Source: a virus
Virus genome (UHGV): UHGV-0199997
Reading direction: 5' to 3' (one strand)
Length of the DNA: 43,953 bases
Below are positions 8,976 to 43,845 of the stretch, piece after piece. Position 1 is the stretch's first letter; every line of letters begins with the position of its first letter. The notes beneath the pieces are model-generated. The model made no database searches, was not told where the DNA came from, and was given only the letters and a program-made list of their open reading frames with translations. Both the position numbers and the translations under genes were made by a program.

Positions 8976-8979
8976 AAAT

Positions 8980-12209: not shown

Positions 12210-12494
12210 CTAACTATAGTAGTTCGCTATTAGGTCGTCAACCTGTTTGAACGAACCAACGACAAAAACATTTGCACCACGTTTGCGCATCCGCTCGTGC
12301 TCTCGTAACTGGTGCGGGTCAGGCTTCGTGCTTTCGTCTTTCTTAACCTCGACGAACCAGATGATGCCGCCGGGGAGAATTACCAGCAGGTCAGGAGCGC
12401 CGGAGCGCCCCTCGTAGGAAAGTTTACGAACGAGGCCACCAATGGCCTCGAATCGCTCTTTTGCGTATTTCTGTATTTTTCCTTCCGGGGTCAC
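12210..12494 (-). CDS. VRR-NUC domain nuclease
   Basis: 94-aa protein with the PD-(D/E)xK-like pattern GAPDLLVIL...FVEVKK...Q typical of VRR-NUC. Confidence 0.65.
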   Translation of the reverse strand: MTPEGKIQKYAKERFEAIGGLVRKLSYEGRSGAPDLLVILPGGIIWFVEVKKDESTKPDPHQLREHERMRKRGANVFVVGSFKQVDDLIANYYS

Positions 12495-18008: not shown

Positions 18009-18224
18009 ATGCAACCATCTGAACTAGGCATCCGTGTAGAACAACGCCGTAAAGAACTCGGTATCTCCCAGCGCCGTCTGGCGGTCCTGGCCGGTGTTTC
18101 CCAGGGCGCGATTAACCAGCTGGCACTTGGAGTAACTCAGGACGTCCGCCCGGCGACGCTGTTCAAGCTGGCGGAAGTGCTGGAAGTAGACGCCAAGTGG
18201 CTGGCGTTCGGTGAAGGGGCTTAA
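18009..18224 (+). CDS. XRE-family HTH transcriptional regulator (Cro/CI-like)
   Basis: 71 aa; HTH core ISQRRLAVLAGVSQGAINQL. Confidence 0.8.
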   Translation: MQPSELGIRVEQRRKELGISQRRLAVLAGVSQGAINQLALGVTQDVRPATLFKLAEVLEVDAKWLAFGEGA

Positions 18225-20826: not shown

Positions 20827-21039
20827 TTATTTATCGCCTGCAAACCACGCGTGCGCAGAATCATAGAAACGACATTTACTTAACATGTCTACCGGCATCT
20901 TAATAATGCGCGTCGGTTCCGACAAATGATTAGGTTTACATATTTCTGCATAGAATCCGCTGTCGGTAATTTCTGACGCAAACTTAAACCAGTATTTAAC
21001 TTTACCGTTCTCAAAGTAACAACCCATACGCCCAATCAT
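20827..21039 (-). CDS. hypothetical protein (70 aa)
   Basis: ORF with ATGA coupling to the upstream HTH gene. Confidence 0.45.
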   Translation of the reverse strand: MIGRMGCYFENGKVKYWFKFASEITDSGFYAEICKPNHLSEPTRIIKMPVDMLSKCRFYDSAHAWFAGDK

Positions 21040-21218
21040 TTCACGTTCTCCTTAATCCACGCTTCAACTTTATTACGGTCAAATGTTCCAGGTAAACGGC
21101 GGCCCATAACCTTAATACAACAGTCGGGGAATTTACCACTGCGTAACCAGTTATTAATTGTCTGACGTGTCACCCCAATACGTTCTGCTACTTCATTCTG
21201 GGTCATGTAATGTTGCAT
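21036..21218 (-). CDS. small HTH DNA-binding protein (AlpA/excisionase-like fold)
   Basis: MTQNEVAERIGVTRQTINNWLRSGKFP helix-turn-helix; ATG 21218 with RBS AGGAG; divergent from the early rightward operon. The track start is 21290. Confidence 0.55.
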   Translation of the reverse strand: MQHYMTQNEVAERIGVTRQTINNWLRSGKFPDCCIKVMGRRLPGTFDRNKVEAWIKENVK

Positions 21219-21325
21219 TTTTATATCTCCTGTTTGTTTAGTGAAGCCAAGTATAGGATAGCGTGAATGTAAAAGCAACCAAAACACCACACAAAGTTAC
21301 TAAGATACAAAAGATGCTACTGGTA

Positions 21326-21470
21326 TTGACTTTTACTAAGAAATATGCTAAGCTCGTCCTGAGCTTGTGAAGTATGAACAAGCGACCGCGGTGCGCGGCA
21401 GGCGAAACGAGCACGTCTCGACGTGTGGAGTGAGTCTCGCTGGCGCATTCGGAAGGGCCATAGTCTATTG
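21326..21470 (+). promoter_or_regulatory. promoter (TTGACT-N17-TAAGCT) plus conserved leader element, copy 1
   Basis: -35 at 21326-21331 and -10 at 21349-21354; 34-nt block identical to copy 2 at 21358-21391 containing a perfect hairpin GCTTGT-N9-ACAAGC; second conserved block at 21448-21470. Confidence 0.5.
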
Positions 21471-21541
21471 TTATTCCCGCCTAAGTATCTAAGTTACTGA
21501 TTTGACGTAGGTTAGAACCGCAAGCTCACTCACTCACTCTT

Positions 21542-21573
21542 GGTGCCTTCGGCACCCCGTTCGTTTCGTTTCG
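21542..21573 (+). terminator. hairpin with U-rich tail (weak terminator) closing the copy 1 leader
   Basis: GGTGCC-TTC-GGCACC followed by CCGTTCGTTTCGTTTCG. Confidence 0.35.
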
Positions 21574-21623
21574 CTCGCTACCCTATTACACGAAAGAATC
21601 ACAACGGCAACGTAACTATTCTC

Positions 21624-21659
21624 TTGCACACCCCAATATAATAGGATACTATTCACTTA
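21624..21659 (+). promoter_or_regulatory. conserved promoter element (TTGCAC-N17-TACTATTCACTTA)
   Basis: One of at least five near-identical ~36-bp elements, each 25-40 bp upstream of an RBS and start codon; this one precedes the gene at 21687. Confidence 0.5.
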
Positions 21660-21686
21660 TCGAAACGAGACAGAGGAGTGAGGGTT

Positions 21687-22848: not shown

Positions 22849-22881
22849 TGTTCAATAGTTTGGGATTTTACTGAGTGACTT

Positions 22882-22972: not shown

Positions 22973-23143
22973 ATGAAACTTAATGACATCGTAACCTGGA
23001 CCGGTAGAAACGGAGAAAAGCGATTCGGGCTTATTGTTGCATCAAACGGCAACAAGTACCGTGTTATGCGATGGCGTCAGTGGGCGCGACGCCCGAGGCA
23101 CTACTGGATTAGTAGCGAACGATTATCTTTAAAACACCAATAA
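22973..23143 (+). CDS. small protein (56 aa), not in the ORF track
   Basis: RBS GAAGGAGA before the ATG; MKLNDIVTWTGRNGEKRFGLIVASNGNKYRVMRWRQWARRPRHYWISSERLSLKHQ. Confidence 0.4.
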   Translation: MKLNDIVTWTGRNGEKRFGLIVASNGNKYRVMRWRQWARRPRHYWISSERLSLKHQ

Positions 23144-23150
23144 AATTTAC

Positions 23151-23186
23151 TTGCACGCTAAGATAGAATAGGCTACTATTCACTTA
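23151..23186 (+). promoter_or_regulatory. conserved promoter element (TTGCAC-N17-TACTATTCACTTA)
   Basis: Same element family as 21624-21659; precedes RBS GAGAGGAGAG and ATG 23211. Confidence 0.5.
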
Positions 23187-31876: not shown

Positions 31877-31878
31877 GA

Positions 31879-32109: not shown

Positions 32110-32145
32110 TAACCGAATAGTACCCTATTATATTGGTGTCTGCAA
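32110..32145 (-). promoter_or_regulatory. conserved promoter element (TTGCAG-N17-TACTATTC), minus orientation
   Basis: Member of the ~36-bp element family; drives the 61-aa minus-strand gene. Confidence 0.5.
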
Positions 32146-33697: not shown

Positions 33698-33727
33698 AAG
33701 GCCCCTTATGGGGCCTTAATTTTATTT
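33698..33727. terminator. bidirectional rho-independent terminator
   Basis: AAGGCCCC-TTAT-GGGGCCTT followed by AATTTTATTT; shared by the convergent genes 33233-33694 (+) and 33722-34243 (-). Confidence 0.65.
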
Positions 33728-34243
33728 AAATCGCGCTGGCATTAGCACCATAAATGCAGTGTTTGAAAATGATATTTTGCATCCTCTGATTTGGTCCTGG
33801 AAATCGAAACGAGCGATTTCATTTTTGTATGCCTTAGAAATCTTGTGCGCGTCCGCCAAGTAGCGCAGGGTGAACCCTATGCTGTCAACCGCCCCCGGCG
33901 TGATGTGCGCCACACGTCTCCAGTCAGGAAACCTTCCGTCTACAACATCTACCGGAAGTGTACATATAAGCGCACGACTATCGTCATAGAAAGAAACGCT
34001 GCTGTTGTCGTGGTCTACTTCCGCGTAGTTAAATTTAGAAGGCTCTCTCCCTTTGATGTCTATGAGAACCGCATTCTCAACGTTTGTCTTAACGTTGTCG
34101 CAGAACAATCTATGACCGTCCGTAGACACTATCAATCCCTCCGGGTCTATGTAAAAAGCATTCAAATAATAGCGCACATCATTTTTAGCTCTGCATATTT
34201 TTGCCCCTACATACGCAGGGAAAGTAATTACTGTAGTAGCCAT
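33722..34243 (-). CDS. DnaN (beta sliding clamp)-like mini-protein
   Basis: 173 aa; VSTDGHRLF matches the conserved DnaN TDGHRL motif and the C-terminus FMVLMPARF matches the DnaN YVVMPMRL tail; own promoter element upstream; RBS GAGGAGGAG. Confidence 0.55.
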   Translation of the reverse strand: MATTVITFPAYVGAKICRAKNDVRYYLNAFYIDPEGLIVSTDGHRLFCDNVKTNVENAVLIDIKGREPSKFNYAEVDHDNSSVSFYDDSRALICTLPVDVVDGRFPDWRRVAHITPGAVDSIGFTLRYLADAHKISKAYKNEIARFDFQDQIRGCKISFSNTAFMVLMPARFK

Positions 34244-34264: not shown

Positions 34265-34300
34265 TAACTGAATAGTACCCTATTATGTTGGGGTGTGCAA
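34265..34300 (-). promoter_or_regulatory. conserved promoter element (TTGCAC-N17-TACTATTCAGTTA), minus orientation
   Basis: Member of the element family; immediately upstream of the DnaN-like gene. Confidence 0.5.
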
Positions 34301-34366
34301 ACTATTTATTAGCCTATTCCAGTTATTCCGCTCAATTGTAAATGTTGGAATAAACTATTCGAATAG

Positions 34367-34509
34367 TTGACTTTTCACTAAAAATATGCTAAGCTCCACC
34401 TGAGCTTGTGAAGTATGAACAAGCGACCGCGGCGCGGGCAGGTAACGGAGCGGGACGTAAGTCCTGAGTGTAGTTACGCTGACGCGTTCGGAAGGGCCAT
34501 ACTCTATTG
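34367..34509 (+). promoter_or_regulatory. promoter (TTGACT-N17-TAAGCT) plus conserved leader element, copy 2
   Basis: -35 at 34367-34372 and -10 at 34390-34395; conserved blocks at 34399-34432 and 34487-34509 are identical or near-identical to copy 1. Confidence 0.5.
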
Positions 34510-34575
34510 CTTGTGTAAAAAGTAACTGGTTTACTGAGATTACGCCGTTTCTATGTTTAAATGATAAGGACTAGC

Positions 34576-34602
34576 GCCCCGCTTTATGGCGGGGCTTTAC
34601 TT
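34576..34602 (+). terminator. hairpin terminator between the copy 2 leader and the spanin gene
   Basis: GCCCCGC-TTTATG-GCGGGGC followed by TTTACTT, about 20 nt upstream of the spanin RBS. Confidence 0.45.
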
Positions 34603-34619
34603 ATCGAGAAAGGAGAAAC

Positions 34620-35006
34620 ATGAATCTTAAAGCAACTGTCGTAGCGGGAGCATGTTTCATCATCCTGGCTTACGCACACGGCATCCACCAGTATCGCAGC
34701 GGCTGGCACGAAGGCCGGGCGAATCTCGTTTCGCAGCAACAGCAGAAAGCACAAGCTGAGTTAGCGAAGAAAACACAACGGCAGCAGCAGGATGAATCAA
34801 AGGCCGCAGCCGCTGACAACGAAGGCAAGACGAAATCAGAGGTGATTACCCGTGAAGTCGTTAAGTACATTAAAACGCCTGGCCGCAGCGTGTGCACTTT
34901 TGACCCTGAGCGCGTGCAGCTCAAGTCCCGCGCCGTCGCAAACGCAAATTCCATCCCCGGATATGACGATGATGCAGCCTCCGTGCAAACTGGCGCCGCC
35001 AAGTAG
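34620..35006 (+). CDS. i-spanin (Rz-like)
   Basis: N-terminal TM helix followed by a Q/A/K-rich coiled-coil periplasmic domain; contains an embedded +1-frame lipoprotein gene. Confidence 0.7.
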   Translation: MNLKATVVAGACFIILAYAHGIHQYRSGWHEGRANLVSQQQQKAQAELAKKTQRQQQDESKAAAADNEGKTKSEVITREVVKYIKTPGRSVCTFDPERVQLKSRAVANANSIPGYDDDAASVQTGAAK

Positions 35007-35115
35007 CGACGCTGACGAGGATTTGGCTATCGACGTTCAGAACGCCGAATGTGTACGGCAACTGAGACTGAAAGTGTTCATGTTGCAGGATTACGTGAGG
35101 AATATTCTGGAATAG
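34852..35115 (+). CDS. o-spanin (Rz1-like lipoprotein)
   Basis: Signal peptide with lipobox LSAC, Pro-rich mature region; overlaps and extends past the i-spanin gene. Confidence 0.7.
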   Translation: MKSLSTLKRLAAACALLTLSACSSSPAPSQTQIPSPDMTMMQPPCKLAPPSSDADEDLAIDVQNAECVRQLRLKVFMLQDYVRNILE

Positions 35116-35197
35116 TTGCCTTGCATGTTGGAATAATTTATTCTTGACATGTAAATCCGGGTGGCCCGGGTTCCAACGTCCAGGGGACATACTGACT

Positions 35198-35899
35198 ATG
35201 AATCGTTTTTTACGTTATCCGTTCCAGGAAGAAGCTGGGGCAGAAGATAAAGCTGGTGGCGGTGACGCGCCGAAAATGTTCACCGCTGAAGAAGTTCAGG
35301 CGCTGATTGAGAAAGAAGTCGCCGGGCTTAAGGCCAATCAGGAAGCGTTGCTGGCGGAGAAGAAAGAAGCCGCTCGCAAAGCAAAAGAGGCCGAAGAAGA
35401 ACGGCAGCGCGCACACCAGGAGGCGTTAAAAGCCGCTGGTAAGATGGACGAGTTCGAAAAAACGATTCGTAGCCAGTATGACCCGGTGCTAGCCGAGAAA
35501 GATGGCCGCATCTCCAGAATGGCAGAGCGCATCCTCGGCAGCGAACGTAAAGCGGTGTTAGGCTCTTTCGCAGGTGACTTCATCACCCCGGAAGCAGTGG
35601 ACATCCTTGCACCGTTCGTTAAGACTGAGTTCGAAGGTGATGATGTGGTTACTAAGTTTGTCGGTGCAGATGGCAACGTAATCACGACTGACCCGGAACA
35701 GTTCCGCAAATATCTGCGCGAACACAAAGCGTTTTCGCATTTGATTAAAGCAAATGCAGCTTCCGGCGGCGGGGCTTCCGGTGGCAAAGGCGGCGGGGCC
35801 GCACCAGCGTTTAAAGACATGAGTGAAGCGGAGCGTTTAGCTCTGTATAAATCGAACCCTGCCGAATTTGAACGGCAACTTAAAGCCCTGAGGAAATAA
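35198..35899 (+). CDS. scaffolding protein
   Basis: Charged alpha-helical, coiled-coil-like protein directly upstream of the major capsid gene; ATG 35198 within track ORF 35144-35899. Confidence 0.55.
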   Translation: MNRFLRYPFQEEAGAEDKAGGGDAPKMFTAEEVQALIEKEVAGLKANQEALLAEKKEAARKAKEAEEERQRAHQEALKAAGKMDEFEKTIRSQYDPVLAEKDGRISRMAERILGSERKAVLGSFAGDFITPEAVDILAPFVKTEFEGDDVVTKFVGADGNVITTDPEQFRKYLREHKAFSHLIKANAASGGGASGGKGGGAAPAFKDMSEAERLALYKSNPAEFERQLKALRK

Positions 35900-43809: not shown

Positions 43810-43845
43810 TAAGTGAATAGTACCCTATTATATTGGGGCGCGCAA
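43810..43845 (-). promoter_or_regulatory. conserved promoter element (TTGCGC-N17-TACTATTCACTTA), minus orientation
   Basis: Member of the element family; drives the four-gene minus-strand cassette. Confidence 0.5.

Follow-up and report, generated by a model that had tools for sequence, protein, structure and literature searches.

The window analysed here is the whole 43,953-nucleotide (nt) stretch of the virus genome UHGV-0199997, which derives from a Kagunavirus (Guernseyvirinae). On its plus strand, a promoter, a predicted structured leader RNA and a hairpin of terminator-like form occupy the region between 34367 and 34619, directly in front of the gene coding for the i-spanin, while the promoter and the 5' part of the leader recur at 21326-21511; the two occurrences are referred to as copy 2 and copy 1, respectively. 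The i-spanin gene (34620-35006) has its start codon at 34620 and a GGAG ribosome-binding site (RBS) at 34612-34615, and is overlapped by the o-spanin gene (34852-35115). Both products match the Rz-like spanin family of PHROG (E=4.5e-56 and E=4.4e-30), and further downstream are encoded a scaffold protein (35198-35899; PHROG, E=9.3e-56) and the major capsid protein. The RBS and the i-spanin, o-spanin and scaffold genes are all located on the plus strand. The 1 kb around the element shares 93-96% identity with many Escherichia Kagunavirus phages (K1G, Bas70-76, XY2) and 60-80% with about 300 Salmonella Jerseyviruses, and the capsid protein falls in a tight Guernseyvirinae cluster whose next relatives show ~42% protein identity. 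The element is a well-supported new structured RNA family of a familiar architectural class. Literature searches on transcription in Kagunavirus or Jerseyvirus yielded genome reports and one gene-level transcriptome only, and no description of the element was found.

Copy 2 is headed by a sigma-70 extended -10 promoter (34367-34395, plus strand), consisting of TTGACT (34367-34372), a 17-nt spacer with TGC at 34387-34389, and TAAGCT (34390-34395). Among 35 distinct relatives the TG before the -10 box is invariant and the base following it varies (C, A or G), which reads as the signature of an extended -10 promoter. A generic promoter scan does not list this promoter, because the -10 box alone matches three of the six consensus positions when the TGn is left uncounted. 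The copy 1 promoter (21326-21354, plus strand) comprises TTGACT (21326-21331), a 17-nt spacer ending in TGC and TAAGCT (21349-21354), and has no upstream palindrome. Transcription is predicted to start at G34402 in copy 2 and at G21361 in copy 1, and the match of copy 2 to the covariance model described below likewise begins at 34402. The recurrence of the promoter and of both leader blocks, as claimed in the first-pass annotation, was borne out by three approaches. A repeat search paired 21326-21395 with 34367-34436 (89% over 70 nt) and 21433-21470 with 34472-34509 (87%), pairwise alignment of the two copies showed similarity running from the -35 box to ~34550, and the covariance model matched copy 2 with 178.8 bits (34402-34548) and copy 1 with 119.1 bits (21361-21511), with no other match in the window.

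The leader 5' domain (34402-34492, plus strand) is predicted to form a hairpin beginning at +3 (P1; 34404-34409 paired with 34419-34424), followed by a composite helix (P2; 34427-34491), which is closed by CCG/CGG and tandem G-U pairs and contains an asymmetric internal loop that is conserved, whereas its tip varies, with loops such as GUAA, UC, GUUA and ACA. The domain folds at -38.3 kcal/mol (z -3.28) and the opposite strand at -25.4 kcal/mol. Minimum-energy folding produced the same architecture for copy 1, for another three variants from Kagunavirus and, among the three full-length leaders of the Jersey type, for two; all were folded independently and diverge widely in P2 sequence. It did not recover the architecture for variant L064 or the leader of phage SE2. 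A covariance model was built from 25 sequences and yielded 63 matches (42 distinct). In its alignment 91.8% of the cells are paired, compared to 33-43% when the 3' partners are slid, and 13 pairs show two-sided changes, in 86 cells, which none of 500 shuffles matches, with the caveat that this alignment was fitted to the structure of the model. In an independent MAFFT/RNAalifold run, a U-A pair at the P2 base was seen to be exchanged for C-G. The covariation thus indicates that the leader is a structured non-coding RNA. The copy 1 leader (21361-21511, plus strand) has the same P1, P2 base and core, and its P2 interior differs in sequence yet is still paired.

A mostly unpaired conserved core, UUCGGAAGGGCCAUAnUCUAUUG (34487-34513, plus strand), is located 3' of P2 and is common to both copies. 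Within it, UUCGGAAGGG is nearly invariant across the K and J leader types introduced below, and Cornell-type leaders carry the related CGGAAGGGUC and CGGGGAUAGUCUAUU. A further small hairpin, P5 (AGUAA-CUGGU-UUACU, 34521-34535, plus strand), is tentatively suggested by 85.8% paired cells and two pairs changed on both sides. Searches of Rfam 15 at gathering thresholds returned no match in the window or in the genomes of phages Jersey, SP-031 and Shemara, and with both copies at permissive thresholds the best E was >= 0.6, on the hairpin only. GGA motifs of the CsrA type number five in ~220 nt, which by eye is near expectation. A mini-frame AUG UUU AAA UGA just 5' of the downstream hairpin was rejected as a candidate, its start codon being absent in some J variants. 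A weak internal sigma-70-like site (TTGCTT-N17-TTTACT, 34507-34535; 8 of 12 matches) also occurs within the leader and, if active, would give rise to spanin transcripts without the 5' domain.

The 3' end of the leader is occupied by a four-segment composite hairpin (34547-34619, plus strand), with a predicted fold of -28.1 kcal/mol (z -4.59), as stable as which none of 200 shuffles was. Its basal stem, GUUUCU/AGAAAC, takes in the last two bases of the RBS and the spacer before the AUG, and is followed by UUU/AAA, by the lower stem GAUAAG/CUUAUC, which is the 'U-tract' itself, and by a G+C-rich top. This top is formed by the stem-loop GCCCCGC-UUUAUG-GCGGGGC (34576-34595), which together with UUUACUUAU represents the upper part of the hairpin of ~27 bp, and with its U-rich tail UUUACUUAUC (34596-34605) makes up the terminator-like apex (34576-34605, plus strand). 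The apex has the form of an intrinsic terminator, namely a G+C-rich stem-loop directly before a U-tract, and with the tail TTTACTTATC it ranks first among the terminator-like sites of the region, seven of its eight pairs being G-C. Five T occur within the first eight positions of the tail; the tract has interruptions and, in the predicted fold, pairs with GAUAAG. Jersey-type leaders retain every segment with other sequences (GUAU/AUAC, UAUACG/CGUAUA, GCCCGGC/GCCGGGC). In a hand-registered alignment of K and J hairpins 96% of the cells are paired, against 42-53% when slid, and 6 of the 23 pairs are compensatory between K and J, with more compensation within the types. The apex loops vary among relatives and the stem shows compensatory changes. 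The tails of the J type (UUAGCGUAUA) and of the C and D types (UGUUACGAGG) contain no U-tract. The conserved feature thus appears to be a hairpin abutting the spanin start, with its terminator-like character peculiar to the Kagunavirus type, and intrinsic termination at the apex is plausible in this phage. The first-pass description of a terminator is correct in that a terminator-like hairpin is present; this forms the apical part of a larger stem-loop, and its U-tract is not kept in relatives. The placement of the hairpin close before the spanin RBS, with the spanin, scaffold and capsid genes downstream, was confirmed by the 16 nt that separate the end of the apex from GGAG and by the PHROG matches. 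The claim that the hairpin must be transcribed through likewise stands, since no promoter can lie within this gap, and spanin expression thus depends on transcription through the hairpin and on its opening.

A leader precedes the i-spanin gene in every type examined. The K type is found in Kagunavirus and some Jerseyviruses, e.g. SETP13, the J type in Jersey and SE2, the C type in Cornellvirus SP-031, and the D type in Shemara and Pantoea phage AH01. A fifth type with repeated, iteron-like TTGCGAG motifs occurs before the spanin gene in two records, L077 and L091. The motifs common to the leader types are short (ACCGCG...CGGAAGGGYC, UCUAUU and GCCGU before the hairpin), and the kinship of the Cornell-type leaders is drawn from position and such short motifs, because the K+J covariance model does not detect them. 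In the phage collection, 230 matching places are spread over 181 records. Within the K type, leader identity amounts to 97-99.6% at loci with only 84-94% in the adjoining intergenic DNA, 72-97% in the spanin gene, 83-97% in the scaffold gene and 83-92% in the capsid gene. SETP13 is a Jersey-type genome with a K-type leader, and when it is compared with SE2 and Jersey in 200-bp tiles, the sole tile clearly closer to the K type than those two genomes is that of the leader with its immediate flanks. In this comparison of SETP13 with SE2 and Jersey, no partner gene travels with the K-type leader. The high leader identity and the SETP13 mosaic therefore argue that the unit is a self-contained, exchangeable module under strong constraint. 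The Jersey-type isolate UPWr_S1 (L053, 38265-38340) represents a natural mutant, in which the P2 interior is deleted between two ACCGCG direct repeats.

Copy 1 is located at a divergent junction beside the replication genes, with ~300 nt and one promoter between it and the nearest gene. Its leader is followed by the hairpin GGUGCC-UUC-GGCACC (21542-21565, plus strand; stem-loop 21542-21556), which has the poor U-tail CCGUUCGUUU and is weaker than the hairpin of copy 2. Directly 5' of this hairpin is a C-rich, G-poor (CUCA)3 tract (21525-21541), a possible Rho-loading site, and 3' of it is a separate promoter for the early genes, TTGCAC-N17-TACTAT (21624-21652, plus strand). Of 13 metagenomic loci anchored on the primase gene, nine carry a variant of copy 1; these variants are more diverse than copy 2 and retain the helices by compensatory change. 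BLAST searches for a second copy in Bas70, Jersey, SP-031 and Shemara found none, each having a single copy; the second copy is present in only some Kagunaviruses. The early locus of phages without copy 1 has another promoter and a leader ending in a composite terminator hairpin, of which the last ~90 nt alone are widely conserved, and copy 1 thus represents a secondary duplication of promoter and 5' domain onto this early leader. The P2 interior of copy 2 in L011 and L064 resembles that of the copy 1 variants of contigs L041 and L050; as at least one phage has a copy 2 with a copy 1-like P2 interior, exchange between the two kinds is suggested. An ancient paralogy of the spanin leader and the early-locus leader is not claimed, because their local alignments in Jersey, Bas70 and SETP13 are not significant (z 1.4, 1.7 and -0.3, respectively); by eye they share the short motifs GAGCUAUAUU and AAGUAUCU...GCCGUAG and a similar composite terminator. 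The early divergent locus of Jerseyviruses comprises ~1 kb of non-coding, apparently structured sequence (L053, 27254-28222; SE2, L138, 11787-12781), which includes the promoter TTGACA-N17-TAAGTT, a leader of ~300 nt and a composite hairpin of terminator type. It had been proposed that the same cis element serves both operons. This holds for the promoter and 5' domain, which are common to the heads of both rightward units, and does not extend to the 3' hairpin, the upstream palindrome and the context, which differ, copy 1 being followed by the separate early-gene promoter.

Immediately 5' of the copy 2 -35 box are overlapping operator-like palindromes (34347-34366, no strand assigned), GGAATA-AAC-TATTC and CTATTC|GAATAG. 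The exact motif GGAATA-N3-TATTC occurs in the window at 34347-34360 and 35130-35143 only, and with one mismatch there are nine matches against 0.63 expected, a number that none of 100 shuffles reaches. Equivalent palindromes are found upstream of the Jersey-type and Cornell-type leader promoters. The motif reported earlier as common to the leader and the region before the scaffold gene is thus real and corresponds to this palindrome. Its centre lies at about -48 at the leader promoter and about -42 at the scaffold-upstream element. The latter, a promoter-like or operator element (35130-35169, plus strand), consists of GGAATAATTTATTC (35130-35143), TTGACA (35144-35149) and the hairpin CCGGGTGGCCCGG (35157-35169), and has no recognisable -10 box. 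It is nearly unchanged in Cornellvirus SP-031 (L135, 26594-26640), in which a strong bidirectional terminator and an inserted opposite-strand gene part the spanin genes from the scaffold gene. The scaffold-upstream element may represent an activator-dependent late promoter, and capsid expression is probably driven separately from the spanin leader. The suggestion that the leader gates the scaffold and capsid operon is therefore doubtful, given that the scaffold gene has a conserved element of its own and the spanins are cut off from it in SP-031.

These features are, tentatively, best explained by a cis-acting attenuator in front of the spanin genes, whose portable 5' domain controls read-through. 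Host RNA polymerase would start at the extended -10 promoter, at about 34402, and its first product would be a non-coding, highly structured leader RNA of ~200 nt. The lower strands of the hairpin would tie up the spacer between the RBS and the i-spanin start codon, many transcripts would stop at 34596-34605 or remain closed to ribosomes, and the spanins would be made only from those transcripts that read through and open the hairpin. The fraction reading through would be set by the 5' domain, most likely by acting on the transcribing polymerase, as in the put RNAs discussed below, or by binding a conserved host or phage component. That the 5' domain is portable, recurs in a second context with no RBS nearby, begins at +1 and is kept across E. 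coli and Salmonella phages without a partner gene fits an action on the polymerase or a conserved factor. In this lineage the head of the early rightward unit has received a copy of the promoter and 5' domain, which indicates that the function of the module does not depend on the spanin hairpin. The repeat, the RNA structure and its conservation, the modular exchange and the gene context are shown by the data, and we infer where transcription starts, that it terminates and that the 5' domain affects read-through.

Several observations weigh against such an attenuator. The homologous Jersey-type and Cornell-type hairpins have no U-tract, and termination is therefore not the conserved function. 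Much of the 5' domain can be dispensed with, as the natural isolate UPWr_S1 has lost the whole P2 interior. Inspection revealed no conserved pairing of antiterminator type for the 5' arm of the hairpin. A trans-acting RNA would also be compatible with the hyper-conservation of the leader, and the separate early-gene promoter after copy 1 gives an arrangement closer to that of a discrete small RNA gene. The published time-course transcriptome of phage vB_Eco_K1B4, the leader of which is 98.7% identical to that of the window, is gene-level and holds no intergenic information (PMC12645636).

Among characterised systems, the closest parallels are provided by phages HK022 and lambda. The put RNA of HK022 acts in cis on the polymerase, via the beta-prime zinc-binding domain, and requires no phage protein. 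As with putL and putR, the unit is a promoter-proximal structured RNA starting at or near +1, with two related copies heading two terminator-containing operons and no obvious phage protein partner, and in both systems conservation is to be expected if the partner is the host polymerase. The leader lies at the predicted +1 with terminator-like hairpins downstream at 34576 and 21542, as a put-type element would, and in the UPWr_S1 variant the 5' domain is reduced to two stem-loops of put-like size. However, the leader fold is different and larger (~150 nt, compared to ~70 nt with two stem-loops), its phage is a virulent siphovirus and the second copy is not universal. The sequence of HK022 putL was recovered from a primer (PMC9378689), and local alignment to it scored 18, against 14.7 +/- 2.3 for shuffles, the real score being equalled or exceeded by 34 of 300 shuffles in the case of copy 2 and by 101 of 300 in that of copy 1. 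The put-like version of the cis-attenuator, taken singly, is considered rather unlikely.

The lambda PR'-6S-tR' region shares with the unit a sigma-70 promoter of constitutive appearance, a ~200-nt untranslated leader, an intrinsic terminator, Rz/Rz1-type genes and head genes. Lambda, however, needs the promoter-bound Q protein and its 6S leader has no conserved fold. Here strong selection acts on the fold of the leader, a Q-like gene is not known, and holin and endolysin are encoded elsewhere. In the lambda nutL-N leader a regulatory RNA site is likewise followed by a long irregular hairpin, in lambda sensitive to RNase III, over the ribosome-binding region of the first gene, but neither boxA nor boxB nor an N-like protein was found here. 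The unit belongs to neither the lambda PR'-6S-tR' nor the HK022 put family. Riboswitches and attenuators similarly combine a conserved 5' domain of several helices, in which certain unpaired nucleotides are invariant and a peripheral helix is dispensable, with an expression platform that joins a terminator-like stem with RBS occlusion. In contrast to these, the leader matches no Rfam family, conserved pairings that exclude each other were not found, and the downstream genes suggest no ligand. EAR of Bacillus, conAn of pLS20 and the Tn916 antiterminator are also leader RNAs that let polymerase ignore terminators in a long mobile-element operon, but they share neither sequence nor host with the leader, some depend on a partner protein, and none has been reported in the Guernseyvirinae.

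Of the alternatives to the cis-acting attenuator, the one that survives best, while unlikely on balance, is that the unit comprises one or more stand-alone small RNA genes, in which case the ~200-nt RNA would act in trans on a conserved target of host or phage, the spanins would be expressed by terminator leakage and copy 1 would be a diverging paralogue. The unit is headed by a strong promoter of its own and is terminator-like at the 3' end, ~200-nt RNAs would be expected from both copies, and the early genes downstream of copy 1 have an independent promoter. Conservation exceeding that of the neighbouring genes, across E. coli and Salmonella phages, and the self-contained, exchangeable nature of the module would also be accounted for, as would the early-locus RNAs of Bas70 and Jersey, which likewise end in a composite terminator hairpin. 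However, complementarity to the phage is at chance level (~15 ten-mers, compared to 14.8 expected), no match was found in E. coli genomes at BLAST sensitivity, and the 3' tail is short, interrupted and poor for the Hfq type, with the U-tract absent altogether in the J, C and D types. The conserved merger of the hairpin with the spanin ribosome-binding region also speaks against a free-standing RNA.

A bolder form of the cis-acting reading, itself unlikely, is that the 5' domain constitutes a new, self-sufficient regulatory RNA fold of virulent Guernseyvirinae phages. It would be either a put-like processive antiterminator of unrelated structure, which renders the polymerase transcribing it resistant to terminators, or a riboswitch-like sensor of some conserved signal of the cell. 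In both cases such a fold would be a promoter-packed portable module which phages exchange and duplicate, thereby reprogramming whole operons.

A passive structured 5' untranslated region (UTR) with a constitutively leaky terminator, which would only stabilise the message, avoid Rho and damp spanin translation, perhaps with RNase III processing like that of the lambda N leader, and would neither sense nor decide anything, appears doubtful. The position of P1 at +3 is the classic one of a protective 5' stem-loop, the composite hairpin covers the spacer following the RBS, the leaders are long 5' UTRs in all genera and the P2 interior can be dispensed with. Such a UTR would nevertheless leave unexplained the near-invariant unpaired segments and linkers, the copying of promoter and 5' domain before an unrelated unit and the compensatory retention of helices in copy 1.

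The involvement of a dedicated phage antiterminator of the N/nut or Q/qut type, which would recognise both copies and switch on the early operon as well as the whole late spanin-capsid operon, is improbable. The two related sites at the heads of both rightward units, the layout resembling lambda PR'-6S-tR' and the further plus-strand terminators within the window at 22881, 31878 and 36967 speak for such a system. However, boxA (CGCUCUUA or UGCUCUUUA), searched for as YGCTCTTTA with at most one mismatch, has 15 matches in the window against 18.6 expected, none of which falls in 34402-34620 or 21361-21680, and the tip loops are not conserved. No Q-family gene is annotated in Bas70, SETP13, SP-031 or Shemara and no antiterminator in the relatives; the small early proteins tested gave no PHROG hit, and within the subset of open reading frames (ORFs) scanned, early proteins match only families of unknown function or helix-turn-helix families. 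There is no annotated N-like protein, small basic early proteins such as that encoded at 22973-23143 being possible candidates. No gene co-varies with leader type, the scaffold and capsid genes have their own promoter-like element and are parted from the spanin genes in Cornellviruses, and Bas70, Jersey, SP-031 and Shemara have one copy each by BLAST. The participation of a phage trans-factor, to which the first-pass annotation had pointed, thus finds no support in gene content or leader sequence.

A DNA-level element, such as a transcription-primed replication origin of the T7 type or a protein-binding site, is very improbable. The phage does have a T7-like replication module (DNA polymerase, gp2.5-like protein and primase-helicase), an A+T-rich segment (34500-34570) follows the promoter, and copy 1 lies beside the replication genes at the divergent junction, but the compensatory changes and the G-U pairs, which work on the plus strand only, point to selection on an RNA fold, and the place before the spanin gene is conserved across genera. 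A small protein gene can be practically dismissed, for the 36-codon 'hypothetical protein' frame annotated within the leader in several GenBank records (Bas70_0007 etc.), which is open in the window (34416-34526), has been shortened by indels in L059, L065, L006 and L056, leaving 9 or 17 codons, has lost its start codon in L045, L067 and L134, is shifted in other variants, differs in copy 1 and is absent in the J types. The frame was rejected as a gene as it is not conserved among homologues and the indels and substitutions follow the helices, and its annotation is probably a mis-annotation.

Among the neighbouring features, the slot just 5' of the leader is a hot spot for varied opposite-strand accessory genes, coding for a RusA-like or clamp-like protein in the window (33722-34243, minus strand), endonuclease VII in SETP13, a PAPS reductase in SP-031 and a phosphatase in Shemara. 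The promoter after copy 1 belongs to a second family, TTGCAC-N17-TACTAT, with a palindrome (AATAG-N4-CTATT) across the -10 box and sites at 21624-21652 (plus), 23151-23179 (plus), 32117-32145 (minus), 34272-34300 (minus) and 43817-43845 (minus), as well as weaker copies near 12213, 15820 and 17915. These sites precede the early plus-strand genes and each small opposite-strand accessory gene, and look like a single regulon under a repressor or activator of the phage. Two helix-turn-helix proteins are encoded in the window, at 18009-18224 (plus) and 21036-21290 (minus). Near-identical bidirectional terminators (AAAGGCCCC-N4-GGGGCCTTT) at 8979, 15092, 31878, 33697 and 41362 mark convergent gene ends, that at 31878 being located within the rightward packaging and head operon, beside an inserted opposite-strand gene.

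The Guernseyvirinae, with the Jersey, K1G and SETP3 groups, rank with the most frequently isolated phages of Salmonella and E. coli, and their use in therapy and biocontrol has been widely proposed. Among sequenced phages, more than 180 contain this strongly constrained, covariation-backed RNA element, which is outside Rfam and is either unannotated or recorded as a 'hypothetical protein', and which is located exactly where spanin expression must be decided. In practical terms, the small ORF should be struck from the annotations, while the promoter and leader together represent a compact candidate part for the engineering of these phages. If the 5' domain acts on the polymerase, the element would be the second case of phage antitermination by RNA only, after HK022 put and with another fold, while a sensor or a trans-acting RNA would constitute a new class of phage regulatory RNA.

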